Shown one piece after another: positions 40,700 through 58,719 of a DNA stretch of 64,000 bases. The notes under the pieces are model-generated. The model did not search any database. It was not told where the DNA came from and saw only the letters and a program-made list of their open reading frames with translations. Positions within the stretch are counted from its first letter, which is position 1; the number at the start of each line of letters is the position of its first letter. Source of the stretch: Escherichia coli (lineage in GTDB: Bacteria > Pseudomonadota > Gammaproteobacteria > Enterobacterales > Enterobacteriaceae). The translations under genes and the position numbers were made by a program. The stretch is taken from the NCBI RefSeq assembly GCF_050920415.1, contig NZ_CP169309.1. One strand, 5' to 3'.

Positions 40700-42364
40700 T
40701 TAAAACGTTTCCCAGTTCTCTCCGCTATCTGCCACTGCCACTTTGCGCGGCGCAGATGGCGTCACAGTTTTTACTACTGCCGATGCTTCGCGCTGGCGTT
40801 GCTGCTCTTGCTGAATCCGGAACACTGCCACAGCTTCGGTCAGGCGACTGGCCTGCTCCTCCAGCGCGGCGGCGGCGGCGGCAGATTCTTCCACCAGCGC
40901 GGCGTTTTGTTGGGTTACTCGGTCCATCTCAGCTACTGCTAAGCCAACCTGATCGATACCACGGCTCTGCTCATCAGAAGCCGAAGCAATTTCGCCCATA
41001 ATGTCCGTCACGCGGGTCACAGCGCTGACAATCTCTGCCATGGTTTCCCCGGCGCTTTCGACCAGCGTAGAGCCAACATCCACTTTGCCCACCGAGTCTT
41101 CAATCAGGCTTTTAATTTCGCGAGCCGCCTGAGCGCTACGCTGGGCCAGATTACGCACTTCTCCCGCAACCACCGCAAAACCGCGCCCTTGCTCACCTGC
41201 ACGCGCTGCTTCAACCGCCGCGTTCAAAGCCAGAATATTGGTCTGGAAGGCAATGCCGTCAATTACGCTGATAATATCGGCGATTTTCTGCGAGCTGGTG
41301 GAGATATCGCGCATGGTCTGCACCACGTTATCCACCACTTTGCCGCCACGTTGCGCCGTTTCGGAAGCACTTAACGCCAGATGGCTAGCCTGACGCGCAT
41401 TCTCGGCGTTCTGTTTCACCGTTGCGGTCAGTTGTTCCATGCTGGCTGCCGTCTCTTCCAGCGAAGCGGCCTGTTGCTCGGTGCGCGAAGAGAGATCGTT
41501 ATTGCCGGTGGCGATTTCGCTGGCACCGCTATAGATAGCATTGGCCCCGTTGCGCACATCACCGACGGTACGCATCAGCTCCCCCTGCATATGGCGCAAA
41601 CTCTCTGCCAGTTGCCCCATCTCATTAGAACCATCCACCTCAATCGGTTTCACCAGATCGCCACCTGCAATATGACGAATGCTGTCAATCAGGCGATTCA
41701 TTGGCGCTACCAACGAGGCTTTAATACCGAACCAGACGGCGAAGATGACCGCCAGTACGACGATCATCACGCCCACCAGAATCCACATCGCCTGGCTGTA
41801 GGAGGCATTATTATCGCTGACGGCGATATCATAGAGCCGATCGTTTTGCTCCATGTAAGCCACATACTGCTTCTCGAAACCGTCCTGATATCCCTGAGTC
41901 GGCTGATCAAAGAATTCGTTGATTTTGCCTGCACCTAACAGTTGGATCAGTTCCGCCAGCGCATTGTGATAAATATCGTAATTACGTTTGATCTCTGCCG
42001 CTGCGGCGGTGCTCTGACGCGGGTCACGCGGCAATGCTTCGTAATCCGCCCAGTTTTTTTCCGCCTGTTTCAGCGAAATACTGGCACTCTGCATCAGCTC
42101 GGCAACGGTTGAACCGCTACCAATATTGTTCTGATCCATCATGTAGCGGATCCCCGCGCGGTTGAGGGTGTTACGCGTCTGCAACAACGCGACCCAGCTG
42201 CCATTCAGCGTGGATTGCTGCTGGCGAATGGTTTGTAAAACAGTGAAATTTTCTTTGTCATTCTTTAAGGCATTAAAGAACAGACCGCCTGATGTCAGTT
42301 GTAAAAGGCCAAAAACGGCCAAAACCAGCAGTAAGCTGGTCACGATCTTGATACGTTTTAACAT
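40700..42364 (-). CDS. tsr: Methyl-accepting chemotaxis protein I (serine sensor)
   Basis: From [27 protein letters not shown]...; HAMP and conserved MCP signalling domain; C-terminal ...NWETF. Confidence 0.9.
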
Positions 42365-42545
42365 GGTTTCTCTTTCCACTAGACAGATACACTGGTTGTC
42401 GGCCTGGTGGTGGAAAACTTTATGCTGTGGAAAAGCGTCGGCACTGCTTTTGTTGCAGCAAACTTGCGTTTTTTGTGAGGGTCACACTCTATAGCGGCAG
42501 TTTATGGTACAAAGTATCAATCTTCTTCGAACCAGTGATACTCCT

Positions 42546-43409
42546 ATGGCTTATAGCATCGATATCATCTCCTGCATTACCGAACGATTTATGGCGTTAA
42601 CAGCCACTGAAAAGCGTATCGCACAATTTATTCTTGATGACGTCTCTGCCGCAGTAGAGTTGCCAATTGCTGAGCTGGCACGGTTAACGCAAACCAGTCA
42701 GGCGTCGGTGACGCGTTTTGCCCGTGCACTGGGGTGCAAAGATGTCCGCGAGTTGAAAGTCAAACTGGCGCAGTCACTGGCTGTCGGGCAGCGGTTTATT
42801 CTCGATGTACCGGATCTTGACGGTGTTCAGGGGATCTACGAAGCGATTATTAGCGTGCTGGAAACGCATCGTCGTTCGCTGGATATGAATGCCATCAGCC
42901 AGGCTGTAAGCTGGTTAAGTCAGGCGCGGCAAATTCTTGCGTTAGGAACTGGCGGCGGTTCCACTATCTGTTCACAGGAGATTCAGTACCGTTTATTCCG
43001 TCTGGGGCTACCAGTGGTCAGTCAGAATGATGCCCTGATGATGAGAATGATGTGCTCGGCAGTGATGCCGCAGGATGTGGTGATTGTGCTGTCGCTGGGC
43101 GGTTATACACCGGAAATCATCGAAAGTGCGGCAATCGCCCGTCAGTATGGCGCGCGTGTTATTGCCATTACGCCAGCACAAACACCGCTGGCAGAACAGG
43201 TAGATCTGGTATTGCCGCTGCTGGTTCAGGAGAGTGATTACATCTTTAAACCCACGCCTTCCCGCTACGCGATGTTAGCCATGGTCGATGTACTGGCAAC
43301 GGAACTGGCAATGGCAAATAAAGCGCAGGCGAAAGATCGCCTGCGGCGGATAAAACTGGTGTTAGACAGCCACCGTGGGGGCGCTAACCGCCAGCCACTT
43401 GGCGATTAG
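42546..43409 (+). CDS. RpiR/MurR-family transcriptional regulator (HTH plus SIS domain)
   Basis: N-terminal HTH_6 (ELPIAELARLTQTSQASVTRFARALG) and SIS domain; first gene of island. Confidence 0.8.
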   Translation: MAYSIDIISCITERFMALTATEKRIAQFILDDVSAAVELPIAELARLTQTSQASVTRFARALGCKDVRELKVKLAQSLAVGQRFILDVPDLDGVQGIYEAIISVLETHRRSLDMNAISQAVSWLSQARQILALGTGGGSTICSQEIQYRLFRLGLPVVSQNDALMMRMMCSAVMPQDVVIVLSLGGYTPEIIESAAIARQYGARVIAITPAQTPLAEQVDLVLPLLVQESDYIFKPTPSRYAMLAMVDVLATELAMANKAQAKDRLRRIKLVLDSHRGGANRQPLGD

Positions 43410-43418
43410 CATTGTCGG

Positions 43419-44888
43419 TTATGCTTCTTCAGGTTTGGTGATCACGACACTCTGGTTTTCACGCTCATTGGTGATAATAGCCAAAGCTTCTTCCCGGCTG
43501 ACCTGACTTGCTGGCGTTACCAACGTCACCAGTACGCCAGCGACCAGGCTGCCCAGCACTGACGGAATACACGGGTTACCCCAGTAAGCCAGCCAGTCGG
43601 CATTCATCAGCACCACAATTGACATCACCATACCGCTCACTAACGCCGCCAGCGCGCCCTGCCAGTTAAAGCGTAGCCAGAAGCGACCGAGAATCGAGCA
43701 GATAAACAGCCCGGACATCAGCATCGAAATCATTTTGGTAATGTAGCTGATGATGTCATTAGAGGTCAGAGCAAAGACCAGCGCCAGGCCAATAACAAAG
43801 GTCAACATCCAGCGTGAGTAAGTAATGGCCTTGTCCTCCGGCGGCATTCTGCCGGTAATCATGGTGTAGACGTCGCGCATCATAATCGCCACTGCCGCAA
43901 TGGCATCAGAACTGGCAGAAGACATGGTGGCAGAAAGCCCGGCAATCAGCACCACCAGCCCAAGAATGGCAGGTAAGAAGCTGGTCGCGAACAAGAAGGC
44001 ATAGTTACTGTTTTCCAGATTCGGGTTCATGGTGAACGCCGCCATGCCGATAATGGCAGGCAGAATCGAGAAGAACAGATACAACACGCCAGTAATAACA
44101 AATGAACGCCGTACAGAGGGAACGTCTTTTCCCGAGTAAATACGCTGGCGATAAGATGGTGTGGCCAGTACGCCGACACCAATAACCAGCGCCAGCGAAA
44201 GCGCAGGCAGCACGCCCATTTTATCAATCGCAAACAGGCTCATCGCTTTTGGGTCCATCGCCTGCTCAATCGCACTCCAGCCACCAACGTGAACAACGGC
44301 AAGAATAGCCATTAATATAAAGCCAAAGAACAGAATTAGGGCCTGAATGGTATCGGTCCACACTACCGCCGAATAACCGCCGATAATAACGTAAATCGCA
44401 AAAGCTAAGGCAATAATTAATTTTGCCACCGTAAGATCAATACCTGTTGCCCAGGCAAGATACATACTTCCACCTAATATATGCGCCCCCAGCCAGCCAA
44501 TAGAGGCAATAAATATCATCATGCCGACAATGTTTTTAATTAAATGACTGCCGCCAGTATAATAAGATATTTCTTCACTCATGGTCATAAAACGTAATTT
44601 ACGTACCGGTGCAAACAGCCACGCCACCAGTAATATACCTACGGCCCCACCGACGCCATAAAGCATTCCGGCCCAGCCATTGCTGTAGCCAAAGCCCACT
44701 GCGCCCATACTGGAACCCGTGCCAACCATCGTGGCAACGGTTGACCCCAGCGTCAGAAACAGCGGCAGCGAACGCCCGCCCAGCAGAAAATCTTCTCCGC
44801 TTTTCTGATTACGAGAAACAAACCAACCAAGCCAAATCATGGCGATGGCATAAATAATAAAGCCGACTAAAAAGATATGACTGTTCAT
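43419..44888 (-). CDS. Sodium:solute symporter (SSS) family transporter
   Basis: 489 aa, about 13 TM, SSS-like N-terminal pattern (GGRSLPLFLTLGSTVATMVGTGSSMG). Confidence 0.8.
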   Translation of the reverse strand: MNSHIFLVGFIIYAIAMIWLGWFVSRNQKSGEDFLLGGRSLPLFLTLGSTVATMVGTGSSMGAVGFGYSNGWAGMLYGVGGAVGILLVAWLFAPVRKLRFMTMSEEISYYTGGSHLIKNIVGMMIFIASIGWLGAHILGGSMYLAWATGIDLTVAKLIIALAFAIYVIIGGYSAVVWTDTIQALILFFGFILMAILAVVHVGGWSAIEQAMDPKAMSLFAIDKMGVLPALSLALVIGVGVLATPSYRQRIYSGKDVPSVRRSFVITGVLYLFFSILPAIIGMAAFTMNPNLENSNYAFLFATSFLPAILGLVVLIAGLSATMSSASSDAIAAVAIMMRDVYTMITGRMPPEDKAITYSRWMLTFVIGLALVFALTSNDIISYITKMISMLMSGLFICSILGRFWLRFNWQGALAALVSGMVMSIVVLMNADWLAYWGNPCIPSVLGSLVAGVLVTLVTPASQVSREEALAIITNERENQSVVITKPEEA

Positions 44889-44990
44889 AATTCACATCCT
44901 GCCAGTAGAGAGAGAATAATGTAAGAGTTCCCGGAGTGCTGAATGTATTCAGCACTCAATTGCGGTCTGTTTTTTTAATTCTTAAATTTA

Positions 44991-45386
44991 TTAGCGGGTC
45001 GCGTTATAACAGGTCACATCGACTTCGACTTTACAATCGACAACCAGATCAGCCACACAACAAATACGTGCAGGCGGATTCTCGCCAAAAAATTCTCTGA
45101 ATACTTTATTAAATGACTGGAAATAGCGGGCGTCGGTCAGGATCACTTTCACGTGAACCACATCCGCCAGGCTATAACCGGCTTCAGTCATGATGTCGAC
45201 ACAGTTTTGGATCGCCAGTCGTGACTGTTCAACGATTCCGCCTTCTACCACTTCACCGTTTTTCATGGGTGTTTGCCCGGAGACGTACAGCCAGCCGCCC
45301 GCCTCAACCGCCCTGGCAAAAGGCAAATGCTGCCCGCCAGTGCCTGTTCCACCTTCCGTACCGTAACGTTTAATGCTCATATTCAC
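44991..45386 (-). CDS. RidA/YjgF-family protein (start uncertain)
   Basis: About 130 aa with Rid-family C-terminal pattern (ARICCVADLVVDCKVEVDV). Confidence 0.7.
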   Translation of the reverse strand: MNMSIKRYGTEGGTGTGGQHLPFARAVEAGGWLYVSGQTPMKNGEVVEGGIVEQSRLAIQNCVDIMTEAGYSLADVVHVKVILTDARYFQSFNKVFREFFGENPPARICCVADLVVDCKVEVDVTCYNATR

Positions 45387-45389
45387 TCC

Positions 45390-46841
45390 TTAATGTGAGG
45401 TCTGCCGGCGCAGGAAGCGTCCCGCACGGCCTGTAATATGTTTATCGCGACCATAGCTCATAACGCCGTTCACCATCACCGCCTCAATGCCATCTGCCGG
45501 GCGTTTGGGATCAGAAAAGCTGGCAACATCACGAATGGTTTGTGGATCGAACAACACCAGGTCCGCAAAATAGCCAACTTTCACCAGTCCACGCTGGGGC
45601 AGGCGAAAACGGCTGGCAGAAAGCCCGGTCATTTTGTGGATAGCCGTGGTCAGAGGGAATAAACCTTCATCACGGCAATAGTGACCCAGCACGCGAGGGA
45701 AGGCGCCCCATAAACGTGGATGCGGCATGGGATCATTGGGCAGGCCGTCAGAGCCAATCATACTGACTGGATAACTCAATACTCTGCGGACGTCGCGCTC
45801 GTCCATGTTGTAATAGATAGCCCCGGCAGGCATTAGCAGCTTCGCGGCCTCCAGCATACTCATCTGCCAGTCGATGGCGATTTGCGCCAGTGTTTTCCCG
45901 GCCTGCTGCGGATGTGTTTGTGACCAGGTGATCACAATATCGAATTCGTCGGTGACTTGTTTGAGATCCAGCGTTGAAGAGCTGGCTGAGTAAGGGTAGA
46001 CATCGCAGCCAATTTCCTGGTGTTGACGCATTTGGTCAAAAAAAGCCAACGTTTCTTTTGTCCGCCCCCAGTTTTTCGCCCCGGCGCATTTATGGTGGGA
46101 AACCACGACAGGCACTTTGCCATGACGCCCAATACGAAACGCCTCATCCAGGGCATCGAGAATCGGTTCAAATTCAGAACGCAGATGGGTGGTATAAACG
46201 CCCTTCTCACCGGCTAATTCTTCCGCCAGCGCCATGACTTCTTCGGTAGTCGCCTGAAATGCTGTGGCATAGGCCAGCCCGGAACTTAACCCCAGCGCCC
46301 CCTGACTCAACGCCAGACGTAAGTCGGCGCGCATGGCGGCAATTTCATCCGCCGTCGCCGGGCGAAACAGGTCGTCCATATGGTTATTACGCAGCGCCGT
46401 ATGACCAATCAGCGTGCCAACGTTCAGTGACGGCCTGGCTGCTTCCACTGCCTGGGCATAGCTTTCAACGGTAGGATAAATAAAGTGCTCCGCTTCCCCC
46501 AACAGATTCATCGGGTCAGGAACTTCGCCTTTCATTTTCGCCGACGCCGCACTGATCCCGCAGTTACCGACAATCACCGTGGTGATCCCCTGGCTGATTT
46601 TTGGCAGATATTCCGGGATGCGAATAACGTTGATATCGTCATGGGTATGAACGTCGATAAACCCTGGTGCCAGCACCCGCCCTTCCCCGTCAATGACCTG
46701 CTGCGCCGTAACGTTAAGCGCAGGGGCAATATCGACAATCCGATCACCTGTTATTGCCACGTCACCGCGAAATTCAGGGCCGCCGCTACCGTCGATAACG
46801 GTCACATTTTTGATTAACCAGTCAACCTGCATGTTCGTCAC
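45390..46841 (-). CDS. D-aminoacylase (N-acyl-D-amino-acid deacylase), amidohydrolase superfamily
   Basis: 483 aa; metal-binding HxH start (GFIDVHTHDD) and D-aminoacylase-like architecture. Confidence 0.75.
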   Translation of the reverse strand: MTNMQVDWLIKNVTVIDGSGGPEFRGDVAITGDRIVDIAPALNVTAQQVIDGEGRVLAPGFIDVHTHDDINVIRIPEYLPKISQGITTVIVGNCGISAASAKMKGEVPDPMNLLGEAEHFIYPTVESYAQAVEAARPSLNVGTLIGHTALRNNHMDDLFRPATADEIAAMRADLRLALSQGALGLSSGLAYATAFQATTEEVMALAEELAGEKGVYTTHLRSEFEPILDALDEAFRIGRHGKVPVVVSHHKCAGAKNWGRTKETLAFFDQMRQHQEIGCDVYPYSASSSTLDLKQVTDEFDIVITWSQTHPQQAGKTLAQIAIDWQMSMLEAAKLLMPAGAIYYNMDERDVRRVLSYPVSMIGSDGLPNDPMPHPRLWGAFPRVLGHYCRDEGLFPLTTAIHKMTGLSASRFRLPQRGLVKVGYFADLVLFDPQTIRDVASFSDPKRPADGIEAVMVNGVMSYGRDKHITGRAGRFLRRQTSH

Positions 46842-47032
46842 TCCATTTCTGCAATGGTGACAAGTTAACCATTTACAAGGATGAAAAACAGTGGAAAACT
46901 ACGCAAAACCCAGATGATTTTATGATACTTTTATTCATAAACTATAAGATAAATAAACTAAATATTTATATTTCATTTAGTTACAAATGATACTCACATC
47001 CGATACGGTGAAAAACTTAAAAGGTAAATGTT

Positions 47033-48253
47033 ATGAAATACCACTCAGAACCTCTGGTTCCCCATAAATCGGCCCTGATGCAAATGCCCGCAAATCTCCT
47101 TGCCGAAGATGTCTGTTTACCTGCCGCGATCATTAAAAAGCAGGCCCTGGAGAACAACATTACGTGGATGCAGCGTTATGCTGACGCGCGCGGCGTTTCG
47201 CTGGCACCGCACGGTAAAACCACCATGACGCCGTGGATTTTTCAGGCGCAGCAGGCGGCTGGTGCCTGGGCAATAGGTGTCGGTAGCGCATGGCAGGCTG
47301 GTGCGGCAATGGCGAGCGGTATTCAGCGAGTGCTGATGGTTAACCAGCTGGTCGGCAAGGCGAATATGCAGTTGATTGCCCGGTTGCAACAACATTACCC
47401 GACGGTCGATTTTATCTGCTGTATCGACAGCATTGAGAACGCCCGCGCTTTGTCTGCCTTTTTTGCCAGTCAGCAACAGACACTGAACGTGATGATTGAG
47501 CTGGGTGTTCCCGGCGGACGCTGTGGTTGCCGCTCAACGGATGCCGCACTGGCACTGGCTAAACAGGCGGCCCAATTACCAGGGCTACGTCTGCGCGGGC
47601 TTGAGTTATATGAAGGTGTTTTACACGGTGACGATCCACAACCGCAGGTAGAAGCTCTGCTGCGGGATGCCGCACAACTGGCCTGTGATATGGCAAGTCT
47701 GGTTGATGGCGAGTTTATTCTCACCGGAGCAGGCACGGTCTGGTATGACGTGGTGTGCAATATCTGGCTGGCGGCAGAAAAGCCTGATAACTGCCGCATT
47801 GTTATTCGCCCTGGCTGCTACATCACTCACGACACCGGGATCTACGACGCGGCACAACAACAGTTGCTTGCCCGCGATCCTGTGGCCTGCGATCTTGCAG
47901 GCGATCTCACATCTGCGCTGGAACTGGTCGCCATGGTGCAATCGGTGCCGGAAGCTGATCGTGCGGTGGTAAATTTTGGTAAGCGTGATTGCGCCTTCGA
48001 CGCCGGACTGCCGCAACCAGTCGCCCACTACCGCAACGGCAAATCACTGGCATTTGATCCACAGGCGATTCGCAGTACAGGTATTATGGATCAGCACTGC
48101 ATGTTGCAACTGTCAGCTAATAGCGACGTGCAAGTGGGGGATATTCTGGTGTTTGGCACATCGCATCCGTGCCTGACCTTCGACAAATGGAAAACGTTGT
48201 TATTGGCTGATGACGACTACAACGTACTGGCAGAGCTGGATACGCTGTTTTGA
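47033..48253 (+). CDS. PLP-dependent enzyme with alanine-racemase-like N-terminal domain (D-serine dehydratase-like / D-threonine aldolase-like)
   Basis: 406 aa; PLP-lysine context (APHGKTT) and fold-type III pattern. Confidence 0.65.
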   Translation: MKYHSEPLVPHKSALMQMPANLLAEDVCLPAAIIKKQALENNITWMQRYADARGVSLAPHGKTTMTPWIFQAQQAAGAWAIGVGSAWQAGAAMASGIQRVLMVNQLVGKANMQLIARLQQHYPTVDFICCIDSIENARALSAFFASQQQTLNVMIELGVPGGRCGCRSTDAALALAKQAAQLPGLRLRGLELYEGVLHGDDPQPQVEALLRDAAQLACDMASLVDGEFILTGAGTVWYDVVCNIWLAAEKPDNCRIVIRPGCYITHDTGIYDAAQQQLLARDPVACDLAGDLTSALELVAMVQSVPEADRAVVNFGKRDCAFDAGLPQPVAHYRNGKSLAFDPQAIRSTGIMDQHCMLQLSANSDVQVGDILVFGTSHPCLTFDKWKTLLLADDDYNVLAELDTLF

Positions 48254-48311
48254 TAGCGCAGATGGCGGGTTCCTTCCCGCCATTAATTGTATGTATATCC
48301 TTAAGTATCTA

Positions 48312-49322
48312 TCAGCTACTTATGGATCGAATATCATCATAGATTGACTGGCTGATCTCTACCCCCTGTTGCTCACTGCGCAATCGTGCCTGGTAGCGAC
48401 GTTCTCCCGGCAGGCGCGCGCCCTGAGCCTGCATCTGACTAAACAGCGTTTCCGCCCTTGCCAGATGCCTCCCTGCATCCTCACCAAGAAAACGCTGCGG
48501 ATCGAGTGCCAGGATCAACTCTCCACCATACGGCAAACCACCTGCACCGTTATCCCACGCAAGAGACTCAGCACTGGTCATATCGCCAATCAGTGGTCCC
48601 GCAATCAGCTCCACCATCGCTGCCAGTGCCGAACCTTTATGACCGCCGAAGGTTAACATTGCTCCGTCCAACACAGCTTGTGGATCGGTGGTGGCATTGC
48701 CATGGCTGTCGATCCCCCAACCTTCAGGAAGTGATTTCCCGGCTCGCTGATGTAACTGAATCTCCCCGCGTGCCGCCGCACTGGTCGCCATATCAAAAAT
48801 AAATGGCGGCAGCTTGTCGCGCGGCCAACCAAACGCGATTGGGTTAGTACCAAAAAGAGGTTTGCCCCCCCCTTTCGGCGCAACCCAGGCATGGCTTGGC
48901 GTGGTCGCCAGCGCCACCAGTCCGGCTTCAGTCAGCGGTTCAACATCCGCAAATAAGGCGGAGTAGTGAACACAATGATTAATTGCCAGTGCTGCAATCC
49001 CGCACTGACGCGTTTTCTCGATCAGTAACGGTAGTGCCTGCTGATAAGCCAACAGCGAATAGCCACCTTTGGCATCGGCCTTAACGATTGCCGGAGCCTG
49101 AGATTCCACTGTCGGCAGAGCATCGGCAGAGACTTTCCCTTTTCGCAGCGTGTCAACAATCCCCAGCAGTCGCCATAAACCGTGCGAGGCACAACCGTCG
49201 CGCTCCCCGGCGGTAACGTTTTTCGCGATCACCACTGCATGTTGCTCACTAAATCCGTTACTAATGAGCGCATGATAGGCTAGTGCGTAAGCCTCTGATA
49301 ACGAGAGGATTACTCTATCCAT
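48312..49322 (-). CDS. Ldh2-family (malate/L-lactate dehydrogenase 2-type) oxidoreductase; candidate pyrroline/piperideine-2-carboxylate reductase
   Basis: 336 aa with Ldh2-family pattern; function inferred from family and neighbours. Confidence 0.6.
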   Translation of the reverse strand: MDRVILSLSEAYALAYHALISNGFSEQHAVVIAKNVTAGERDGCASHGLWRLLGIVDTLRKGKVSADALPTVESQAPAIVKADAKGGYSLLAYQQALPLLIEKTRQCGIAALAINHCVHYSALFADVEPLTEAGLVALATTPSHAWVAPKGGGKPLFGTNPIAFGWPRDKLPPFIFDMATSAAARGEIQLHQRAGKSLPEGWGIDSHGNATTDPQAVLDGAMLTFGGHKGSALAAMVELIAGPLIGDMTSAESLAWDNGAGGLPYGGELILALDPQRFLGEDAGRHLARAETLFSQMQAQGARLPGERRYQARLRSEQQGVEISQSIYDDIRSISS

Positions 49323-49333
49323 TTTCTACTCCT

Positions 49334-50935
49334 TTATTCTTCTTCATCCCCGTTAAAGTTCGCCCGAGGAAGACAGGTGTATGCGCCCCAGTAATAAATT
49401 CCCAACGACATCAGCGCGACGACGATAGTATCCCACGGGTGCCCTATAATGCCGCTACCGCCAAAGCTACCCAGCCAGGAAAACAGCATAATCAGGGCAT
49501 AGAAGGCAATAAGCCACAATGAAGATTTAATCTGCTGCGCCAGGCTGACATGCTGAACAGGCACTTTCGACTTGCAACTCACGTAAACCACAAACATTAC
49601 GATTTGTAGCCCCAGCAGCCAGGAAAGCGTCCCCCAACCAGACCAAAAAACAATCAGTGCGGAAATCATAAAAGAGAGTGGGCCAAGCACCGCAAAACCA
49701 CGAACGCGGAACGGGCGCGGCATATCAGGTGCATTACGGCGCAGTCCTGCAGCTGTAACCGGCGCGATGGCGTAGCTCAGTACCAGAGCCGCAGAAACCA
49801 CGCTAATCAATTGCTCCCACGACGGGAACGGTAGCGTCCAGAAGATAGATAAACCAAACGTCAGCCACAGTGCCGGACGTGGAATACCTGACTCCTTATC
49901 GATATGAGTAAAGGTTTTAAAGAATGTCCCCGCCTTCGCCCAGCCATAGATCACACGCGGTGTCGCATTCATGTAAATATTGCCAGTGCCGCTGGGAGAC
50001 ACAATAGCATCACATACCACCATAAATGCCAGCCAGCCCATCCCGAGAGTAATGGCGATATCGCGATATGGCAGCGAATAGTTCTTACTGATCTCCGCCC
50101 AACCACCACTTAGCGATTCAGTTGGAATACTGCCCAAAAAGGCGACCTGCAACAGAACGTAGATGATGGTCGAGAGAATTACCGAGAGGATCAGCGCAAA
50201 TGGGATGGTACGTTGCGGATTTTGCGCCTCGCTGGCTACGGAGATAATCGGTGTCAGTCCAAGGTAAGCGAAGATAATCCCACCCGCGCTAATTGCCGCT
50301 TCCACTCCTGACATACCAAATGGAGCCATACCCTGTATATGCAGATTCTCCGGTTTGAAGAAGGCAAATAACGTTATTACCACCAGCAACGGCACCAGAA
50401 ACTTCAGCACGCTAATAAAATTGTTCGAGCGAGCGAAAGTTTTAACACTGTAGTAGTTCAGGGCAAAAAAGAAGCACAACAGTAAGAACTGCACCACCCA
50501 GCCTAACAGCGTCGGGTCACTACTCCCCGTCTGCGTCAGCGCAGGAAACCAGGCGGCGGCATATTGCCGTGCGGCTACAATCTCAATGGAGATCAGGCTG
50601 GAGAAGGCAATCAGGGTAATAAAACCCAGCAGATAGCCCATCAATTCGCCGTGCGAAAATACCGGGTAACGAATAATACCGCCCGCGCGGGGAAGCGCCG
50701 CCCCCAGTTCGCAGTAAATAATCCCCAGTAGCAGCACCGCAAAACCGCCAATAACCCAGGAAGCAATCCCTGCTGGGCCAGCGATCGATGCGACATGGCT
50801 GGCAGCAAACAGCCAGCCAGAACCGAAAATCGCCCCCAGACCAATAAAGGTCAAGTCGGTGAGCGTTAACTGCTTTTTAAACTTCCCCGACTCAACAACG
50901 ACGGTTTGCGTGCTTTGGGTAGAAGGAATTGTCAT
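49334..50935 (-). CDS. APC-family amino-acid permease
   Basis: From MTIPSTQSTQTVVVESG... with GAAGGG RBS; about 12 TM. Confidence 0.75.
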   Translation of the reverse strand: MTIPSTQSTQTVVVESGKFKKQLTLTDLTFIGLGAIFGSGWLFAASHVASIAGPAGIASWVIGGFAVLLLGIIYCELGAALPRAGGIIRYPVFSHGELMGYLLGFITLIAFSSLISIEIVAARQYAAAWFPALTQTGSSDPTLLGWVVQFLLLCFFFALNYYSVKTFARSNNFISVLKFLVPLLVVITLFAFFKPENLHIQGMAPFGMSGVEAAISAGGIIFAYLGLTPIISVASEAQNPQRTIPFALILSVILSTIIYVLLQVAFLGSIPTESLSGGWAEISKNYSLPYRDIAITLGMGWLAFMVVCDAIVSPSGTGNIYMNATPRVIYGWAKAGTFFKTFTHIDKESGIPRPALWLTFGLSIFWTLPFPSWEQLISVVSAALVLSYAIAPVTAAGLRRNAPDMPRPFRVRGFAVLGPLSFMISALIVFWSGWGTLSWLLGLQIVMFVVYVSCKSKVPVQHVSLAQQIKSSLWLIAFYALIMLFSWLGSFGGSGIIGHPWDTIVVALMSLGIYYWGAYTCLPRANFNGDEEE

Positions 50936-50946
50936 AGTGATGCCCT

Positions 50947-52557
50947 TCAATGAGTCAACAAGGAGGAAATGGCTTCCCGGGTCCACTGGCCGTTAACCAA
51001 GCGCAGCAGGTTTAATGGATTACTGTCCTGCAGCGCAGGCGGTAATAGTGCAGCGGGTGCATTTTGCAGGCATACCGGGCGCAGAAAACGAGTAATGGCC
51101 AGCGTGCCTACGGACGTGCCGCGCGCGTCGGTGGTTGCCGGGAACGGACCACCGTGTACCATGGCATCGCAAACCTCGACGCCGGTGGGATAGCCATTGA
51201 ACAATACGCGTCCGGCTTTATCAGCCAACAATGGCAATAAACGACCAGCCAGTTGCCGGTCATCCTCATCCGCCTGAAGTGTGGCAGTAAGTTGCCCTTG
51301 CAGAGCGTTAATTACCTGCAACAACTCCGCTTCATCAGCGGCTTCAACCACAATCGCGAGCGGCCCGAACACTTCCTCCTGCAACAGAGGATCTTTTTCA
51401 AGTATGTTTGCCGCCTGAGCCTGATAGAGACGAGTTTCTGCTCGTCCGGCTTGATGATTATCGTCCCCCGCCAAACACCGAATAGTCGGATGTTCTGCCA
51501 GTTTCTCCACGCTGTGGCGATAGTGCTCAAGCGTGGAGGCGTTTAGCATGAGTTGCGGTGTGGCGGCATTCACTTTCTCAACCAGTTGCTGTAAAAAGTC
51601 CGCGTTTTTCTCCCCTTTCAGCAACACAATCAGGCCTGGTTTAGTGCAGAACTGTCCACATCCCAACGTGAACGACGCGACTAAATCGCGGGCCAGCGTA
51701 TCGGCACGTACTGATAGCGCCTGCGGCAGAATGAAAAAGGGATTGAGAGCCGACATTTCGGCAAAAACCGGTATCGGCTGTGGACGCTGTTGGGCCAAAC
51801 GAAAGAGCGCCATGCCACCACGTAATGAGCCGGTAAAACCCACCGCCTGAATTGCGGGATGTTTCACCAGTTCAGCACCGATATCAGTACCGAAAATCAT
51901 ATTGAATACGCCTGCGGGCATGGCGCATTTAGTCACGGCACGAGCGATCGCTGATGCGATAATTTCTGCCGTTGCCATATGCCCAGGATGCGCTTTCACA
52001 ACTACCGGGCATCCTGCAGCCAGTGCCGCTGCTGTATCACCACCGGCGATAGAAAAAGCGAGTGGAAAGTTGCTGGCACCAAATACCGCCACCGGCCCGA
52101 GAGCCGTTTTATACTGGCGCAAATCCGGTCGAGGCAGAGGCTGACGCTCCGGCAACGCAGTATCAATTCTTACCTCAAACAGATCGCCCCGACGTAATAA
52201 CCCGGCAAACATGCGCATCTGCCCGCTGGTTCTTGCCCGCTCTCCCTGTAAACGCGCCAGGGGTAACGCTGTCTCCTGATGTGCCGTAGCGAACAGTTCG
52301 TCGCCTGCTGCATCAAGTTCATCGGCGATGGTTTCTAAAAAATCGGCACGTTGCCCGGCATTGGTCAGTGAATAGCACACAAAAGCCTGCTGCGCCGCAA
52401 TAGCCGCCTGCTCGGCCTCCTCCACGGAGGCCGGGTAAAAACGTTGCCCGGTAGGTTCGCCATCCTGCGCTCGCAGGCTGACCAGCGACGGTTCACCGCT
52501 GGCAACACGTTGCCCGGCGATGAACTGTTGCCCGGTGAAAGGGAAAGTTTCAGTCAT
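50947..52557 (-). CDS. NAD(P)-dependent aldehyde dehydrogenase (candidate alpha-ketoglutarate-semialdehyde dehydrogenase)
   Basis: 536 aa ALDH superfamily with catalytic Cys context (FTLGCGQFCTKPG). Confidence 0.75.
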   Translation of the reverse strand: MTETFPFTGQQFIAGQRVASGEPSLVSLRAQDGEPTGQRFYPASVEEAEQAAIAAQQAFVCYSLTNAGQRADFLETIADELDAAGDELFATAHQETALPLARLQGERARTSGQMRMFAGLLRRGDLFEVRIDTALPERQPLPRPDLRQYKTALGPVAVFGASNFPLAFSIAGGDTAAALAAGCPVVVKAHPGHMATAEIIASAIARAVTKCAMPAGVFNMIFGTDIGAELVKHPAIQAVGFTGSLRGGMALFRLAQQRPQPIPVFAEMSALNPFFILPQALSVRADTLARDLVASFTLGCGQFCTKPGLIVLLKGEKNADFLQQLVEKVNAATPQLMLNASTLEHYRHSVEKLAEHPTIRCLAGDDNHQAGRAETRLYQAQAANILEKDPLLQEEVFGPLAIVVEAADEAELLQVINALQGQLTATLQADEDDRQLAGRLLPLLADKAGRVLFNGYPTGVEVCDAMVHGGPFPATTDARGTSVGTLAITRFLRPVCLQNAPAALLPPALQDSNPLNLLRLVNGQWTREAISSLLTH

Positions 52558-52572
52558 AATCTCTCCCCCACC

Positions 52573-53493
52573 TCAAAGGCCCACGTCCGGCAGCGCAGGG
52601 CGAGTCGCCAGCGATTTCTCAACGATCGCCACAACCTGGGCACGCGTTTCGCCTTCCAGCGCCAGACGCGGCGGGCGAGTAACCTCACTGCCACGCCCCA
52701 ACAGGGCTTCACACAGCTTGATACACTGCACCAGGTCAGGGCGCGCATCGAGATGTAGCAGTGGCATAAACCAGCGATAGAGCGCCATAGCCTCGGCAAA
52801 ACGCTGTTGTTTTGCCAAACGGAACAACGTCTCACCTTCGCGTGGGAAGGCGTTTGACATCCCGGAAATCCAGCCTTCAGCGCCCACCGCAATGCTCTCA
52901 ACCACGACATCGTCCAGCCCGGCAAACAGCACAAAGCGATCGCCTACCGCATTGCGAAGATCGATAAAGCGCCGGGTATCACCAGAGGAATCTTTAAAGC
53001 AGACGATATTTTCGCAATCAGCTAGTGTTTCCAGGATATCAGGGGTGACATCGTTTTTATAAATCGGAGGGTTGTTATAGACCATGATCGGCAGGTCGGT
53101 CGCCATTGCCACACTGCGGAAGTGCGCTGCAGTTTCATGAGGCTTAGATGAGTAAACCAAAGCAGGCATCACCATAACGCCATCAACACCGACCTTCTCG
53201 GCCTCTTTTGCCATCGTCCGGGCAAAGGCAGTGGTGAACTCAGCAACCCCGGCAATCACCGGAATTTTTCCGCCAGCAGCATCTTTCGCTACTTCGATGA
53301 TTTGCAGTTTTTCCTGAGTGGTAAGTGACGTGTTTTCTCCAACGCTGCCGCACACTACCAGGCCAGAAACCCCATCTTTAACCAAGTTTTTCATCACCGC
53401 ATGTGTGGCATCCAAATCAAGTGAGTAATCACTACGGAACTGAGTGCTAACCGCCGGAAAAACGCCACTCCAGTTAATCGCTTTATTGCTCAT
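52573..53493 (-). CDS. DapA/NAL-family lyase (candidate pyrroline-4-hydroxy-2-carboxylate deaminase)
   Basis: From MSNKAINWSGVFPAVSTQF... with AGGAA RBS; class I aldolase (DHDPS-like) pattern. Confidence 0.7.
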   Translation of the reverse strand: MSNKAINWSGVFPAVSTQFRSDYSLDLDATHAVMKNLVKDGVSGLVVCGSVGENTSLTTQEKLQIIEVAKDAAGGKIPVIAGVAEFTTAFARTMAKEAEKVGVDGVMVMPALVYSSKPHETAAHFRSVAMATDLPIMVYNNPPIYKNDVTPDILETLADCENIVCFKDSSGDTRRFIDLRNAVGDRFVLFAGLDDVVVESIAVGAEGWISGMSNAFPREGETLFRLAKQQRFAEAMALYRWFMPLLHLDARPDLVQCIKLCEALLGRGSEVTRPPRLALEGETRAQVVAIVEKSLATRPALPDVGL

Positions 53494-53644
53494 CTTTGGT
53501 TTCCTTATTGTCAATCTGTTGCGTCAATGTGAATTAAAAGTGAATCTTCATTAACAGATTGACCTCTCCTTGCGCTGGCGGCTTGTCGATTTTCTTTCCC
53601 CAGGATGACGAAATTAGCACAATGCCCAGTTGTGATTTGTCGTG

Positions 53645-54472
53645 TTACCCCATCAACGTCATCCGAAAATCACGCGGAGTTGAGCCTGTCATCGCCTTAA
53701 ATTGACGGCTGAACGCACTATGGTCGGTATAACCGCACTGCAAAGCGATATCGGTAATCGGCGTAGTTCCGGCAAGTAACTCGGTGGCCTTTTCCAGTCG
53801 AACTTTGTGGATCATCTGGCGAGGCGTCAGGTGAAAAATCCGCTTACAGTAGCGTTCAATTTGCGCCACAGACATTCCGCTCATTTCAGTCAACTCTTCC
53901 ATAGAGATCGCACGGTAGTAGTGATTGCGAATGTGCTCATCGATGATCGCCAGGCGTTGCCAGGCTGGATGACGCGCATGTGCTTCCTGGAGATCATGTG
54001 AGATCCCCGCCATTCCGATCACACGCCCCTGCATATCGCGCAGTGCCAGTTTCTGCGTCAGACACCAGCCGCGTTCGCGACCGTTATAGAGATGCATCTC
54101 TAGTTGATCACGTAACGCAACCCCTTCGCGTAGCACACGCAGATCCTGTTCGGTATATCCTCGTCCCAATGCAGAAGGGAAAACATCTGCCGATGTCTTC
54201 CCCAGTAGCGATGTCACATTTTTAAACCCGCAGCGTCGCGCCAACGTCATATTGACTAACAGATAACGGGCCTGCATATCCTTAATAAAAAACACCACAT
54301 TAGGAATGGCGTTGAGAAGTGGCGCAATCAGCGCCAGTGCATTTAACAACGCCTGAATATTTTGTGGACGCTGCCGCGCCAGCCCCTCGCAAATCTGACT
54401 AAGTTCATCAACGGCCAGCGCAGTTTCTTCACAAGGGGAAAACTCAAAAGTCTGATGACATATGCTGGACAT
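53645..54472 (-). CDS. AraC-family transcriptional regulator
   Basis: C-terminal AraC HTH (TDIALQCGYTDHSAFSRQFK); divergent from the epimerase operon. Confidence 0.8.
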   Translation of the reverse strand: MSSICHQTFEFSPCEETALAVDELSQICEGLARQRPQNIQALLNALALIAPLLNAIPNVVFFIKDMQARYLLVNMTLARRCGFKNVTSLLGKTSADVFPSALGRGYTEQDLRVLREGVALRDQLEMHLYNGRERGWCLTQKLALRDMQGRVIGMAGISHDLQEAHARHPAWQRLAIIDEHIRNHYYRAISMEELTEMSGMSVAQIERYCKRIFHLTPRQMIHKVRLEKATELLAGTTPITDIALQCGYTDHSAFSRQFKAMTGSTPRDFRMTLMG

Positions 54473-54783
54473 AGTTGTTCCTCATAGCGATTGAGGATGA
54501 ATGTTTATTAACCTTTGATTAACATGACAAGTACTGAAAGTGCATTTTGCGATCCTTCCGTGTATTTCCACTTTCCGTTGCTCTCACTACTGACGAACGC
54601 TTGTTCCTGGTCTAACACATCACTAACAAAATGATTAATATTAAAAAAACATGACCACTCCTGGTGTCGCGAAATAATTCACTGTGCTGATTTCGTCATT
54701 TCCCTTGCAGAAACCCTTCAAGCGATAAAGTTGCAATTACGCCAGCATTTAGAAACATTTTGTTAACCACATGGAGCCAGAGC

Positions 54784-55731
54784 ATGCATGTTCCTCACCA
54801 AATCACTGAACTCAGGGCTATCGACTCCCATACCGGAGGCGAGCCGACCCGGTTGATTATTGATGGCTTTCCCGATCTCGGTAGCGGCAGCATGGCCGAA
54901 CGGCGCGAACGTTTTACCCGGGAATTTGACTGTTGGCGCAAAGCCATAATTCTTGAGCCACGCGGCAACGACGTGCTGGTCGGCGCGCTACTGTGTGAGC
55001 CGCTTTCCCCTCATGCCACGGCGGGTGTCATCTTTTTCAATAATGCCGGATACCTGAATATGTGTGGGCACGGCACTATCGGGCTTGTTGCCTCACTGGC
55101 CTGGTTGGGTCGTATTAAACCGGGCGTTCATCGCATTGAAACCCCTGTCGGAGATGTAAACGCCACATTGCATGATGATGGCAGTGTGTCAGTTGAAAAT
55201 GTTCCGGCCTGGCGCTGGCAAAAACAGGTAAGTGTGGAAACAGCGGTGGGTACAGTTACAGGAGATATCGCCTGGGGTGGTAACTGGTTTTTTCTTATTA
55301 ATGATCATCCATTTGATATTGTGCCGGAACAAATCCCGCAGTTAACTGAATACGCCTGGGCGGTACGGGAAGGGCTCGATAATGCGGGGATCGTCGGTGA
55401 AAACGGTGGCATTATCGATCATATCGAACTTTTTGCCGATGACGATCAGGCGGATAGCCGTAGCTTCGTCCTTTGCCCAGGTAAAGCGTGGGATCGTTCT
55501 CCCTGTGGCACAGGCACCAGCGCCAAGCTGGCCTGTCTGGCAGAAGACGGAAAACTCGCCCCCGGCGATAGCTGGCGCCAGGCCAGTATTATTGGTAGCC
55601 AGTTTACGGCTCACTATACCCGCCATGGCGAGAAGATTATCCCCACCATTCGTGGAGAAGCCTGGGTATGCGGCGACAATCGCCTGCTCCTTAATCCGGA
55701 CGATCCCTTCTGCTGGGGGATTAGCCTGTGA
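54784..55731 (+). CDS. Proline-racemase-family enzyme, Cys/Cys type (candidate 4-hydroxyproline 2-epimerase)
   Basis: Catalytic motifs MCGHGTIG and [12 protein letters not shown] (both Cys). Confidence 0.75.
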
Positions 55732-56837
55732 ACAGCACGGAGGTCATTGTCATCGGCGCAGGCATCATCGGGGCCTCCTGCGCATGGCAACTGGCAAAAC
55801 GTGGTGTGAGAGTCACGCTAATTGACAACGGCCGAGCCGGAGCGACAGCTGCAGGAATGGGGCATCTGGTCTGTATGGATGATGATCCCGCAGAACTGAC
55901 GCTCTCTGCCTGGTCGCTGGAACTGTGGCGCACGTTGACGCCTCAGTTACCGGAAAGCTGTGCCTGGTGCGGCTGTGGCACATTGTGGCTGGCGGAAACA
56001 CCAGAAGAACTGGAAATTGCCCGAGAGAAGCAGCGACGTCTGGCATCGCATGAGGTCAACAGCGAAATGCAAAGCGCTGCACAATTGGCTGAGCGGGAAG
56101 TTATGCTACGCCCGGGGTTATCCGGCGGGTTATGGGTGCCGGGCGATGGCATCGTCTACGCCCCAAACGTTGCCCGTTGGTTTATTGCCAATGCAGGCGA
56201 TAAGCTGACACATCTGGTTGATCCGGCCATTCGTCTGGAAGAACCTACAGTGACATTACAGAGCGGTCGCCAATTACGCGCCGATGCGATCGTCGTCGCC
56301 TGTGGTCTGGGGGCCAATACGTTACTGGGGGAGCCATGGCTGCGCGCGAAGAAAGGCCAACTTGCGATTACCGATCGCTATGGTCCACTAGTCAATCACC
56401 AACTGGTTGAACTTGGCTACGGCGCCAGTGCTCACGGCAGCGGCACGTCAGTGGCCTTTAATGTGCAGCCTCGTCCCACCGGACAACTGCTGATTGGCTC
56501 TTCACGTCAGTTCGATAACGAGGATCGCGAACTGGACCTTCCACTCCTGGCCGCGATGCTGTCCAGAGCGCAACACTTTCTGCCGTCTCTGGCAACGCTC
56601 AATATTATTCGTTGCTGGAGCGGTTTTCGCGCCGCCTCGCAGGATGGTAATCCCCTTCTCGGCCCGCATCCTTCCCGTGCTGGCGTCTGGCTGGCTCTTG
56701 GTCATGAAGGGCTTGGAGTGACTACTGCCCCCGCCAGCGCGTCGCTGTTAGTCGCACAGTTGCTGGGTGAACGCAGCCTCGTATCTCCTGCCCCCTGGCT
56801 ACCCGCAAGACTTATCTCCCTGGAGGCCAGCGCATGA
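55728..56837 (+). CDS. FAD-dependent oxidoreductase (DAO family; candidate D-hydroxyproline dehydrogenase subunit)
   Basis: N-terminal FAD motif [21 protein letters not shown]. Confidence 0.75.
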
Positions 56838-57097
56838 GTGGCACCATTAGAATTTTTATTGCCGGACAGCCCTGGTTTGTCCCGACGGGTATTAGCGTAG
56901 CGGCGGCACTGGCCTTAACTGATAACCCCATTACGCGCCTTTCGGTGAGCGGGCAACCACGTACGCCCTTCTGCGGCATGGGCGTTTGCCAGGAGTGTCG
57001 GGTGAGCGTTAATGGTCGTCGGGTACCCGGTTGTCAGACCCTTTGCCAGCCAGACATGCAGATTGAAAGGAGCGGATATGCAGACCTTACAGTGTGA
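56834..57097 (+). CDS. Small [2Fe-2S]-binding protein (dehydrogenase subunit)
   Basis: 87 aa with Cys motifs CGMGVCQECRV...C; overlaps both neighbours. Confidence 0.65.
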   Translation: MSGTIRIFIAGQPWFVPTGISVAAALALTDNPITRLSVSGQPRTPFCGMGVCQECRVSVNGRRVPGCQTLCQPDMQIERSGYADLTV

Positions 57098-58343: not shown

Positions 58344-58719
58344 ATCCCTGATAATAATTTGGCGTTAAGGGCTTATCTGGTCTGGTAAATCTTACAAATT
58401 CAATATATTGCAGAATCTATCCAGGCCAGATAAGCGTAGCGCAGCTGGCAATTATTGAGCCGTAAACGAGGAATCTACCCAGAAAAAATTTCGTGATCTC
58501 AATCACATATTAGCTCGATGAATAATTCTTGCCCAACCGCTCACCGCCATTCCTGACCGCTTACGTCCCAAATATAACCACTCAGTTATTTACCTTACTT
58601 TACGCGCGCGTAACTCTGGCAACATCACTGCAGGATAGCGGTCAATTTACCTCCTCAAACGCAACGCAAACCTAGAACGGCTTCGGCCAACTATTAATCA
58701 ATACATGCCAGGTTTTACT

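Follow-up and report, generated by a model that had tools for sequence, protein, structure and literature searches.

The closest described relative of the genes considered here is the ong cluster of Pseudoalteromonas prydzensis ACAM 620, which consists of OngIT, KdgK, OngA, OngOT-1, OngC, OngR, OngB, and OngD and encodes an oxidative chitin pathway for N-acetyl-D-glucosaminic acid (GlcNAc1A) (Jiang et al. 2022, PMC9537276; Wang et al. 2025, PMC12017989). In this cluster OngIT is an importer of the sodium:solute symporter (SSS) family, OngA belongs to family GH20, OngC is a deaminase dependent on pyridoxal 5'-phosphate (PLP), OngR is an RpiR-type protein that acts as a repressor, OngD is a RidA protein, and a TonB receptor is also encoded (PMC9537276). 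OngB converts GlcNAc1A to D-glucosaminate, from which OngC produces 2-keto-3-deoxygluconate (KDG) and NH3; deletion of any of ongB, ongC, ongD, kdgK, or ongIT abolished growth of P. prydzensis on GlcNAc1A, and OngD, although essential in vivo, was not assigned a role (PMC9537276). Here we describe a gene module next to tsr in a 64,000-nucleotide window of an Escherichia coli chromosome (the window being the whole stretch of DNA analyzed, to which all positions refer). We give an even chance to the joint reading that this module is the enterobacterial version of the ong pathway, acting on an N-acetyl-hexosaminic acid (an amino sugar oxidized at C1), and that its substrate has the galacto configuration.

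The functional unit is made up of the RpiR regulator, SSS, RidA, amidohydrolase, and PLP enzyme genes and spans positions 42546 to 48253, with the following parts:

42546-43409, plus strand: OngR-like regulator of the MurR/RpiR family (Pfam HTH_6 and SIS)
43419-44888, minus strand: OngIT-like SSS sodium:solute symporter (PF00474, E = 4e-43), last gene of the amidohydrolase-RidA-SSS operon
44991-45380, minus strand: OngD-like enamine/imine deaminase of the RidA family (PF01042, E = 1e-23)
45390-46832, minus strand: OngB-like amidohydrolase (Amidohydro_3/D-aminoacylase family, subtype V, D-aminoacylase fold; PF07969, E = 1e-42)
46833-47032, no strand: AT-rich control region between the divergent amidohydrolase operon and PLP gene
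47033-48253, plus strand: OngC-like fold-type-III PLP enzyme (PF01168 and PF14031)

A first-pass annotation of this DNA, made from the letters alone, had proposed a module at 43419 to 49322 containing a D-aminoacylase, RidA, an SSS transporter, a PLP enzyme, and an Ldh2-family reductase. All five open reading frames (ORFs) are present at the limits it gave and have strong Pfam matches, and the RefSeq annotation of strain MFDS1022581, to which the window is 100% identical, has the same five genes; the RefSeq starts differ for RidA (45380, as opposed to 45386 for the longest ORF) and the amidohydrolase (46832, as opposed to 46841). The gene order in its title needs correcting to SSS, RidA, amidohydrolase, PLP enzyme, and Ldh2, and its module was drawn too short, omitting the cognate RpiR/MurR regulator at 42546 to 43409, whose stop codon lies only 9 bp from that of the SSS gene. 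None of the E. coli proteins scanned scored above any NCBIfam equivalog cut-off, and these proteins therefore have no curated function; close solved homologs are available for all of the enzymes. In a comparison of two E. coli haplotypes, the five module genes together show 104 synonymous and 9 nonsynonymous changes, a ratio of nonsynonymous to synonymous polymorphism (pN/pS) of 0.027. The module genes are real, maintained, and under strong purifying selection. No RNA family was found by Rfam in 42000 to 59000.

The module was compared with a Pseudoalteromonas ong locus whose OngB is 92% identical to that of P. prydzensis (PpOngB). Over their full lengths, the E. coli proteins are 44% identical to OngR, 58% to OngIT, 84% to OngD, 54% to OngB, and 45% to OngC. 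Identity to the Vibrio counterparts is 55% for the regulator, 69% for the SSS protein, and 86% for RidA, and among enteric bacteria it reaches 85 to 91% for the regulator and 81% for the PLP enzyme (Citrobacter and Raoultella). The 84% identity of RidA to OngD, with surrounding proteins at only 44 to 58%, marks an unusually strong conservation of this protein.

Outside of E. coli, alignment to OngB located 13 Enterobacterales loci, and with five further enteric contexts a total of 18 non-Escherichia enteric contexts was available. The five genes occur together in 10 of the 13 Enterobacterales loci, in all five further contexts, and in three Vibrio loci; the remaining three Enterobacterales loci lack only the SSS gene. 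The order of the PLP gene, amidohydrolase, RidA, and regulator is that of E. coli in 13 of 13 Enterobacterales loci, and the regulator accompanies the amidohydrolase in 66 of 80 related loci. A four-gene form (PLP gene, deacetylase, RidA, and regulator) without SSS, kinase, or aldolase genes is present in Enterobacter sp. Ag1, Cedecea neteri, and Enterobacteriaceae RIT693, in which uptake must therefore use another carrier. In about 50 Pseudomonas species an OngB-like deacetylase gene (63% identical, with Gly at position 348) is grouped only with genes for a GntP permease and an RpiR regulator. Neither a PLP deaminase nor a RidA gene is near these three-gene units, and their later steps are therefore encoded elsewhere or are different.

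Among solved structures, the amidohydrolase matches KleDacyl (PDB 9g5m, 84% identity), PpOngB (9kb1, E = 1e-167, 54% identity), and the Alcaligenes D-aminoacylase (1m7j, E = 9e-137). Its metal ligands C94, H219, and H249 and its catalytic D365 are invariant. The structure of PpOngB with its substrate, together with mutagenesis, showed that the residues holding the acetamido and carboxylate groups are common to this enzyme and the D-aminoacylases, with specificity residing in A193, A256, S292, Q298, and G348 of PpOngB and in F191, M254, T290, L298, and M346 of AfDam, the Alcaligenes faecalis enzyme, which was reported to be inactive on GlcNAc1A (PMC12017989). The E. coli residues A190, A253, S289, and Q295 are identical to their PpOngB counterparts, and N345 (position 348 in PpOngB) is polar where AfDam has Met, so that the hydrophobic pocket of the D-aminoacylases (F191, M254, T290, L298, M346) is replaced by A, A, S, an OngB-type loop with Q, and N. 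The difference from AfDam (1M7J) and from the Bordetella N-acyl-D-glutamate deacylase (3GIP) lies in this side-chain pocket, where E. coli has A, A, S, and N, and extends to the loop-2 motif, which is SSSTLDLKQ in E. coli in place of GSTMLKQDR in AfDam. Where PpOngB contacts GlcNAc1A in their complex, E. coli has the same residues throughout; one of them, E226, binds the 4-OH. Across 15 pocket positions the signature is LAYEKAYSSSQNDLR in E. coli, LAYEKAYSSSQGDLR in PpOngB, and LFYEKMYGSTRMDLR in AfDam; the E. coli signature is common to KleDacyl, 13 of 13 Enterobacterales loci, and 11 of 11 Burkholderiales loci. The amidohydrolase is thus predicted to be, and likely is, an N-acetyl-hexosaminate deacetylase of the OngB type. 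An N-acetyl-hexosaminic acid is formally an N-acetyl-D-alpha-amino acid.

The sequences of the other proteins are consistent with this prediction. In the PLP enzyme, the PLP lysine in the motif PHGKT aligns with the PLP lysines of D-threonine aldolase and D-threo-3-hydroxyaspartate dehydratase, and a His-x-Cys motif (SHPC) aligns with the His-x-Asp motif (SHVD) of the D-threonine aldolase AxDTA. The Zn-dependent D-serine dehydratase binds its metal through His and Cys, and the bound metal activates the hydroxyl group of the substrate (PMC4401734). The RidA arginine is kept, with "enppARicc" aligned to "kpARvav" and "ppARvtv" of solved RidA-family proteins. This catalytic Arg, in a P-A-R motif, we take to correspond to Arg105 of Salmonella RidA. 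The SSS symporter is the predicted importer of the N-acetyl-hexosaminate.

The KleDacyl enzyme of Klebsiella pneumoniae counts against a hexosaminate substrate and favors a simpler one. It hydrolyzes N-acetyl-D-Met, N-acetyl-D-Phe, and N-acetyl-D,L-Trp, strictly D-specifically and poorly (Km of 19 to 32 mM for N-acetyl-D-Met and N-acetyl-D-Phe, kcat of 29 to 90 per min, kcat/Km of about 1.5 to 2.8 per min per mM), and it also acts on N-acetyl-D,L-aminobutyrate (PMC12149444). PpOngB, unlike KleDacyl, has no detectable activity on N-acetyl-D-amino acids (PMC12017989). KleDacyl (PDB 9G5M/9GV8) shares 84% identity and the whole 15-residue pocket signature with the E. coli protein, but it was characterized on N-acetyl-D-amino acids only, on which it is a poor catalyst. 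The module could then serve to salvage ordinary beta-hydroxy N-acyl-D-amino acids, such as N-acetyl-D-serine or N-acetyl-D-threonine, through deacylation, an elimination of the D-serine dehydratase type, and quenching of 2-aminoacrylate by RidA, without any part for Ldh2. The measurable, strictly D-specific acylase activity of so close a relative and the His/Cys site that the PLP enzyme shares with Zn-dependent D-serine dehydratase both speak for salvage. Nevertheless, we consider it improbable, given that the KleDacyl activities are very weak, that F191, M254, T290, and M346 of true D-aminoacylases give way to the small or polar residues of the OngB type, and that a sugar-acid kinase and aldolase in the operon of relatives (see below) and an RpiR/SIS regulator of the sugar type would make no sense for a three- or four-carbon amino acid. 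An exact-sequence look-up of KleDacyl itself was negative; a 92.5%-identical relative, reached through cluster representatives, lies in a seven-gene cluster with SSS, RidA, PLP, DgoK, and DgoA genes. The acylase activity of KleDacyl is probably a side reaction of a wider pocket, and PDB 9G5M, published as a D-acylase, is then probably an amino-sugar-acid deacetylase.

Returning to the hexosaminate reading, we find that part of the coherent chemistry claimed by the first-pass annotation stands. A D-aminoacylase-family enzyme, RidA, and a PLP enzyme like D-serine dehydratase do form a sensible series acting on an N-acyl-D-alpha-amino acid, in the order deacylation, PLP-dependent beta-elimination, and imine hydrolysis, but the share it gave to Ldh2 falls away. 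By homology, pocket residues, and gene context the substrate is likely an N-acetyl-hexosaminate, not the ordinary D-amino acid or hydroxyproline isomer it had suggested, and where it held that the substrate could not be read from sequence, sequence and context do narrow the substrate class.

The kinase and aldolase genes of related clusters may indicate which hexosaminate is used. In the Vibrio loci, genes for a PfkB-family KdgK (NF052444, 396 bits) and an Eda-type 2-keto-3-deoxy-6-phosphogluconate (KDPG) aldolase come after the five genes, and in Vibrio europaeus a GH20 enzyme and a lactonase also follow. In Leclercia, by comparison, the SSS gene and the regulator enclose two genes, which encode a DGOK-family kinase (PF05035, E = 4e-90) and a 2-dehydro-3-deoxy-6-phosphogalactonate (KDPGal) aldolase, which scores 302 bits against a cut-off of 207 in NF006600, the model for that enzyme, and fails the Eda models. 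Genes for DGOK and the KDPGal aldolase are found within the operon in 13 of the 18 enteric contexts (8 of the 13 loci and all five of the further contexts). The cluster of Citrobacter freundii lies, like that of E. coli, between btsT and tsr, and the kinase and aldolase that it encodes are 55% and 70% identical to DgoK and DgoA of K-12, respectively. The clusters of E. coli, Franconibacter, and Shimwellia are without dgoK and dgoA genes, and in E. coli the 9-bp junction between the SSS gene and the regulator is where Citrobacter has its two extra genes. The dgo operon of E. coli K-12 includes dgoK and dgoA. We infer that E. coli has lost the in-cluster kinase and aldolase, whose place the chromosomal dgoK and dgoA (or kdgK and eda) would take.

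Beta-elimination by the PLP enzyme removes the stereocenters at C2 and C3 and keeps those at C4 and C5. Because C4 and C5 are retained, a pathway that ends in DgoK and DgoA would start from a galacto-configured hexosaminate, and the D-specific fold of the deacetylase would then make this N-acetyl-D-galactosaminate. The enteric product is thus probably 2-keto-3-deoxy-D-galactonate and the substrate N-acetyl-D-galactosaminate, as judged from the relatives that carry both genes. We tentatively propose, with confidence somewhat short of even, that the enterobacterial seven-gene cluster is a previously undescribed pathway for the catabolism of N-acetyl-D-galactosaminic acid, or C1-oxidized N-acetylgalactosamine (GalNAc), and that the five-gene module of E. 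coli is a trimmed copy of it. No description of the catabolism of galactosaminate or N-acetylgalactosaminic acid was found in the literature searched. Two reports with similar terms were considered and set aside: the glucosamine route via NagX in the GapMind paper is unrelated to the module, and "D-glucosaminate degradation" in a paper on extraintestinal pathogenic E. coli (ExPEC) is only the MetaCyc label PWY-7310 for lineage STc95, with no mention of the module genes.

Position 348 of the deacetylase pocket follows a similar division. It is Asn in 24 of 24 Enterobacterales and Burkholderiales loci, the two groups with DgoK/DgoA contexts, and Gly or Cys in Pseudomonas, Pseudoalteromonas, and Vibrio. 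We take the correlation as no more than suggestive, because the Paraburkholderia dgo genes lie in a neighboring operon and the Asn lineages are not sister groups. The idea that N348 marks a single galacto clade was dropped, as an unbootstrapped neighbor-joining tree does not support monophyly.

The same enzymes could instead act, as in Pseudoalteromonas, on GlcNAc1A, a monomer that would be scavenged from the products of lytic polysaccharide monooxygenases and hexosaminidases of other organisms, with KDG passing into the KdgK and Eda of E. coli. GlcNAc1A is the only substrate that has been shown experimentally for this enzyme family (PMC9537276, PMC12017989), and the clusters of Klebsiella and Serratia were included among the ong clusters in a published survey (PMC9537276). 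The retention in E. coli of every PpOngB residue that contacts GlcNAc1A, E226 among them, and the lack of DgoK and DgoA in the clusters of E. coli, Franconibacter, and Shimwellia agree with this as well. What a GlcNAc1A pathway leaves unexplained is the pairing, within the operon of 13 of 18 contexts, of a kinase of the galactonate type with a KDPGal aldolase (70% identical to DgoA), when Vibrio has KdgK and Eda, along with the systematic Asn at position 348 in place of Gly or Cys; furthermore, the enteric clusters have neither a GH20 enzyme nor a TonB receptor for oxidized chito-oligosaccharides. We therefore regard GlcNAc1A as an unlikely substrate of the enteric enzymes, though one with a real claim.

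Several points besides the KleDacyl activities weigh against an N-acetyl-D-galactosaminate pathway. The OngC-like protein is only 45% identical to the marine enzyme, and the hexosaminate substrate of the enteric enzymes is predicted from homology and context. The choice between gluco and galacto rests on relatives, the E. coli cluster being without kinase or aldolase. The N348 lineages are few in independent number and are not sister groups in the unbootstrapped tree, and dgoK and dgoA of Paraburkholderia stand in a neighboring IclR operon and may be near by chance. The literature searched gave no natural source of N-acetyl-D-galactosaminate.

If the N-acetyl-D-galactosaminate pathway is nonetheless correct, it would run as follows. 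The SSS transporter would import the acid, as OngIT does, and the OngB-like zinc amidohydrolase would remove the acetyl group, a step strongly supported by homology and pocket residues. The OngC-like PLP enzyme, with a His/Cys metal site predicted to activate the 3-hydroxyl, would then eliminate water from C2 and C3 of the D-hexosaminate to give an enamine/imine; the basis for this PLP-dependent elimination is the homology to OngC and the His/Cys site. RidA may speed hydrolysis of the imine to 2-keto-3-deoxy-hexonate and ammonia. Phosphorylation by DgoK and aldol cleavage by DgoA would complete the route, with both enzymes encoded in the cluster in relatives and elsewhere on the chromosome in E. 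coli. Finally, the RpiR protein would repress the two divergent operons through the 200-bp region between them until the substrate or a downstream intermediate, the presumed effector, appears.

In this control region (46833 to 47032), an alignment of E. coli with the 13 Enterobacterales loci shows little or no variation in TGAATAAAAGTATCA, CCACTGTTTT, and CTTGTAAATGGTTAAC; TTCCACTGTTTT is likewise an invariant block there. The block CTTGTAAATGGTTAAC presumably resembles a half-palindromic operator of the HexR type. These conserved blocks are candidate binding sites for the RpiR regulator. One promoter-like site was found at 47014-46987, in a promoter scan that was not enriched over shuffled sequences.

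A galacto substrate would have consequences beyond this locus. The ong family would be split into gluco- and galacto-specific branches, marked by the type of kinase and aldolase and by deacetylase residue 348. The substrate could come from oxidized mucin- or glycan-derived GalNAc in gut or soil, and for enterobacteria of the gut or associated with plants, oxidized GalNAc would be a new nutrient that helps to determine their niche.

The Ldh2 gene that the first-pass annotation had counted as a module member belongs to a different set of genes. The module lies in a 16-kb accessory segment between tsr and btsT, two genes that in K-12-like strains are separated by noncoding sequence only. The features to either side of the module are the following:

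40700-42379: tsr, left border of the accessory segment
48261-48284, no strand: GC-rich hairpin between the convergent PLP and Ldh2 genes, terminator-like site GATGGCGGGTTCCTTCCCGCCATT
48312-49322, minus strand: Ldh_2 oxidoreductase, LhpD/DpkA-like (PF02615, E = 1.5e-95)
49334-50986 by the longest ORF (RefSeq gene end 50935), minus strand: APC permease
50947-52557, minus strand: aldehyde dehydrogenase
Minus strand: protein of the dihydrodipicolinate synthase (DHDPS) family
Minus strand: AraC regulator
Plus strand: 4-hydroxyproline epimerase and three D-hydroxyproline-dehydrogenase-like subunits
58705-60870: btsT, right border of the accessory segment

The Ldh2 gene lies 11 bp downstream of the APC permease gene, on the same strand, and is convergent with the PLP gene across the hairpin at 48261 to 48284, which is likely a bidirectional terminator that marks the module boundary. 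Consensus scans for promoters and terminators in this analysis gave no enrichment over shuffled sequences, and the hairpin is used as a positional marker only. When the permease gene is taken as its longest ORF, it shares 40 bp with the end of the aldehyde dehydrogenase gene, and the later RefSeq start leaves an 11-bp gap. Because the RefSeq start gives this gap in place of an overlap, the start taken by mechanical calling is probably too far upstream.

Among its solved relatives, the Ldh2 protein is closest to DpkA, a reductase of piperideine-2-carboxylate (Pip2C) and pyrroline-2-carboxylate (Pyr2C) (1wtj/2cwh, E = 1e-73), with other Ldh_2 enzymes at 2e-34 or weaker. The DpkA homolog LhpD of trans-4-hydroxy-L-proline clusters catalyzes the NADPH-dependent reduction of Pyr2C and Pip2C (Watanabe et al. 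2014, PMC3958920). Our gene is like LhpD and DpkA in its Ldh_2 family, in having DpkA as its best solved relative, and in its hydroxyproline-cluster setting, where its partners are hydroxyproline epimerase, a three-subunit D-hydroxyproline dehydrogenase, a DHDPS-family deaminase, and aldehyde dehydrogenase; it differs in that the Citrobacter amalonaticus gene, 76% identical to it, stands alone between btsT and tsr. A hydroxyproline cluster of Pseudomonas lalucatii, made up of aldehyde dehydrogenase, DctPQM, DHDPS, proline-racemase-family, and AcnX genes, is adjoined by an Ldh2 gene with 67% identity. Because DpkA is its best solved relative, LhpD occurs in hydroxyproline clusters, and its presence and absence are independent of the module, we assign Ldh2 to the hydroxyproline genes, as a predicted LhpD-type pyrroline-2-carboxylate reductase and the last gene of the operon DHDPS-aldehyde dehydrogenase-APC permease-Ldh2.

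This independence is plain in the genomes. The stretch from the regulator to the PLP gene (42450 to 48280) is present in 194 of 5426 complete E. coli genomes, 193 of which cover at least 80% of it. The stretch from Ldh2 to the last dehydrogenase subunit (48300 to 58400) is present in exactly 34, always whole and with at least 99% identity. The module thus occurs without Ldh2 in 160 E. coli genomes, and Ldh2 occurs in 34, always with the nine-gene hydroxyproline block; in strain AR13438 the order is tsr, regulator, SSS, RidA, amidohydrolase, PLP gene, and btsT, with no Ldh2. Ldh2 is also missing from 17 of the 18 related enterobacterial contexts, and in the 13 Enterobacterales loci no Ldh2 or other hydroxyproline gene was found within 10 kb. 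The module without Ldh2 is found in C. freundii, Serratia odorifera, a Klebsiella-like contig, and a JGI contig, and the module together with the hydroxyproline block and its Ldh2 in Raoultella and unclassified Escherichia. In Enterobacter, a hydroxyproline block ending in Ldh2 directly adjoins tsr and the module is not present.

One could still place all five genes of the first-pass annotation, Ldh2 included, in one pathway for a hydroxyproline isomer or imino acid that is linked to the hydroxyproline genes. In its favor, the module and the hydroxyproline block lie next to each other in 34 E. coli genomes, unclassified Escherichia, and Raoultella, and relatives of Ldh2 do reduce cyclic imino acids. 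This is already contradicted by the presence/absence data, in which the module lacks Ldh2 in 160 E. coli genomes, C. freundii, Leclercia, S. odorifera, and Klebsiella-like contexts, Enterobacter has the hydroxyproline block with Ldh2 and no module, and C. amalonaticus has Ldh2 alone. The co-orientation of Ldh2 with the permease gene of the hydroxyproline operon, 11 bp downstream of it, and the hairpin that separates it from the convergent PLP gene argue in the same direction, and a joint pathway is accordingly very improbable.

The E. coli haplotypes with the module only and with both blocks part at about 48235, in the last six codons of the PLP gene (48235 to 48253), which read GAGCTGGATACGCTGTTTTGA and GAATTAGACACTCTCTTCTAA, respectively, and show synonymous differences only. 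Because the junction lies inside the PLP gene and all differences are synonymous, it suggests an exchange by homologous recombination, the donor having the two blocks next to each other beforehand. In two E. coli strains (NZ_CP101233.1 and NZ_CP032073.1, in the match to 43000 to 49800), the module is split by an IS3-family element with an annotated transposase. No integrase or insertion sequence (IS) element flanks the accessory segment in the window. We considered a mobile island and rejected it, as there are no flanking mobility genes, the same btsT-tsr site is used in Citrobacter, and the tsr-lgoT side is shared with Leclercia. At least five states of the tsr-btsT interval exist among the Enterobacteriaceae:

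Empty: K-12-like strains
Ong-like module only: 160 E. coli genomes and C. freundii
Hydroxyproline block and Ldh2 only: Enterobacter, seen from the tsr side (that locus has no btsT)
Both blocks: 34 E. coli genomes, unclassified Escherichia, and Raoultella (whose contig shows neither tsr nor btsT)
Ldh2 alone: C. amalonaticus

The tsr-btsT interval is thus an example of one chromosomal hot spot that mixes independent catabolic modules.

Another route for hexosaminates, based on the phosphotransferase system (PTS), is comparable in that it takes a hexosaminate through a keto-deoxy sugar acid to pyruvate and glyceraldehyde-3-phosphate. It differs in that it first phosphorylates the nonacetylated acid, uses another lyase family, and has no deacetylase, RidA, or SSS protein. 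The lyase of this PTS-based route is named in PMC9529869.

The ong cluster is much the nearer match, as the E. coli module has exactly the OngR, OngIT, OngD, OngB, and OngC families in one locus. The E. coli module differs in having no PfkB-type KdgK, the stop codons of its SSS and regulator genes being only 9 bp apart, and in its arrangement, with the PLP gene divergent and the regulator at the far end on the opposite strand. The GH20 enzyme OngA and the TonB-dependent receptor are absent from the E. coli island and from the enteric contexts examined, whereas the Vibrio europaeus and Pseudoalteromonas loci have a GH20 gene and the Pseudoalteromonas locus a TonB-dependent receptor. Pocket residue 348 is Asn in the E. 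coli and enteric deacetylases and Gly in PpOngB, and the DgoK and DgoA paralogs carried by the enteric relatives point to the C4 epimer. Judged on these comparisons, the module should work like the ong pathway in its five shared components and would differ from it in the lower pathway of its relatives, its predicted enzymology extending the pathway described between 2022 and 2025.

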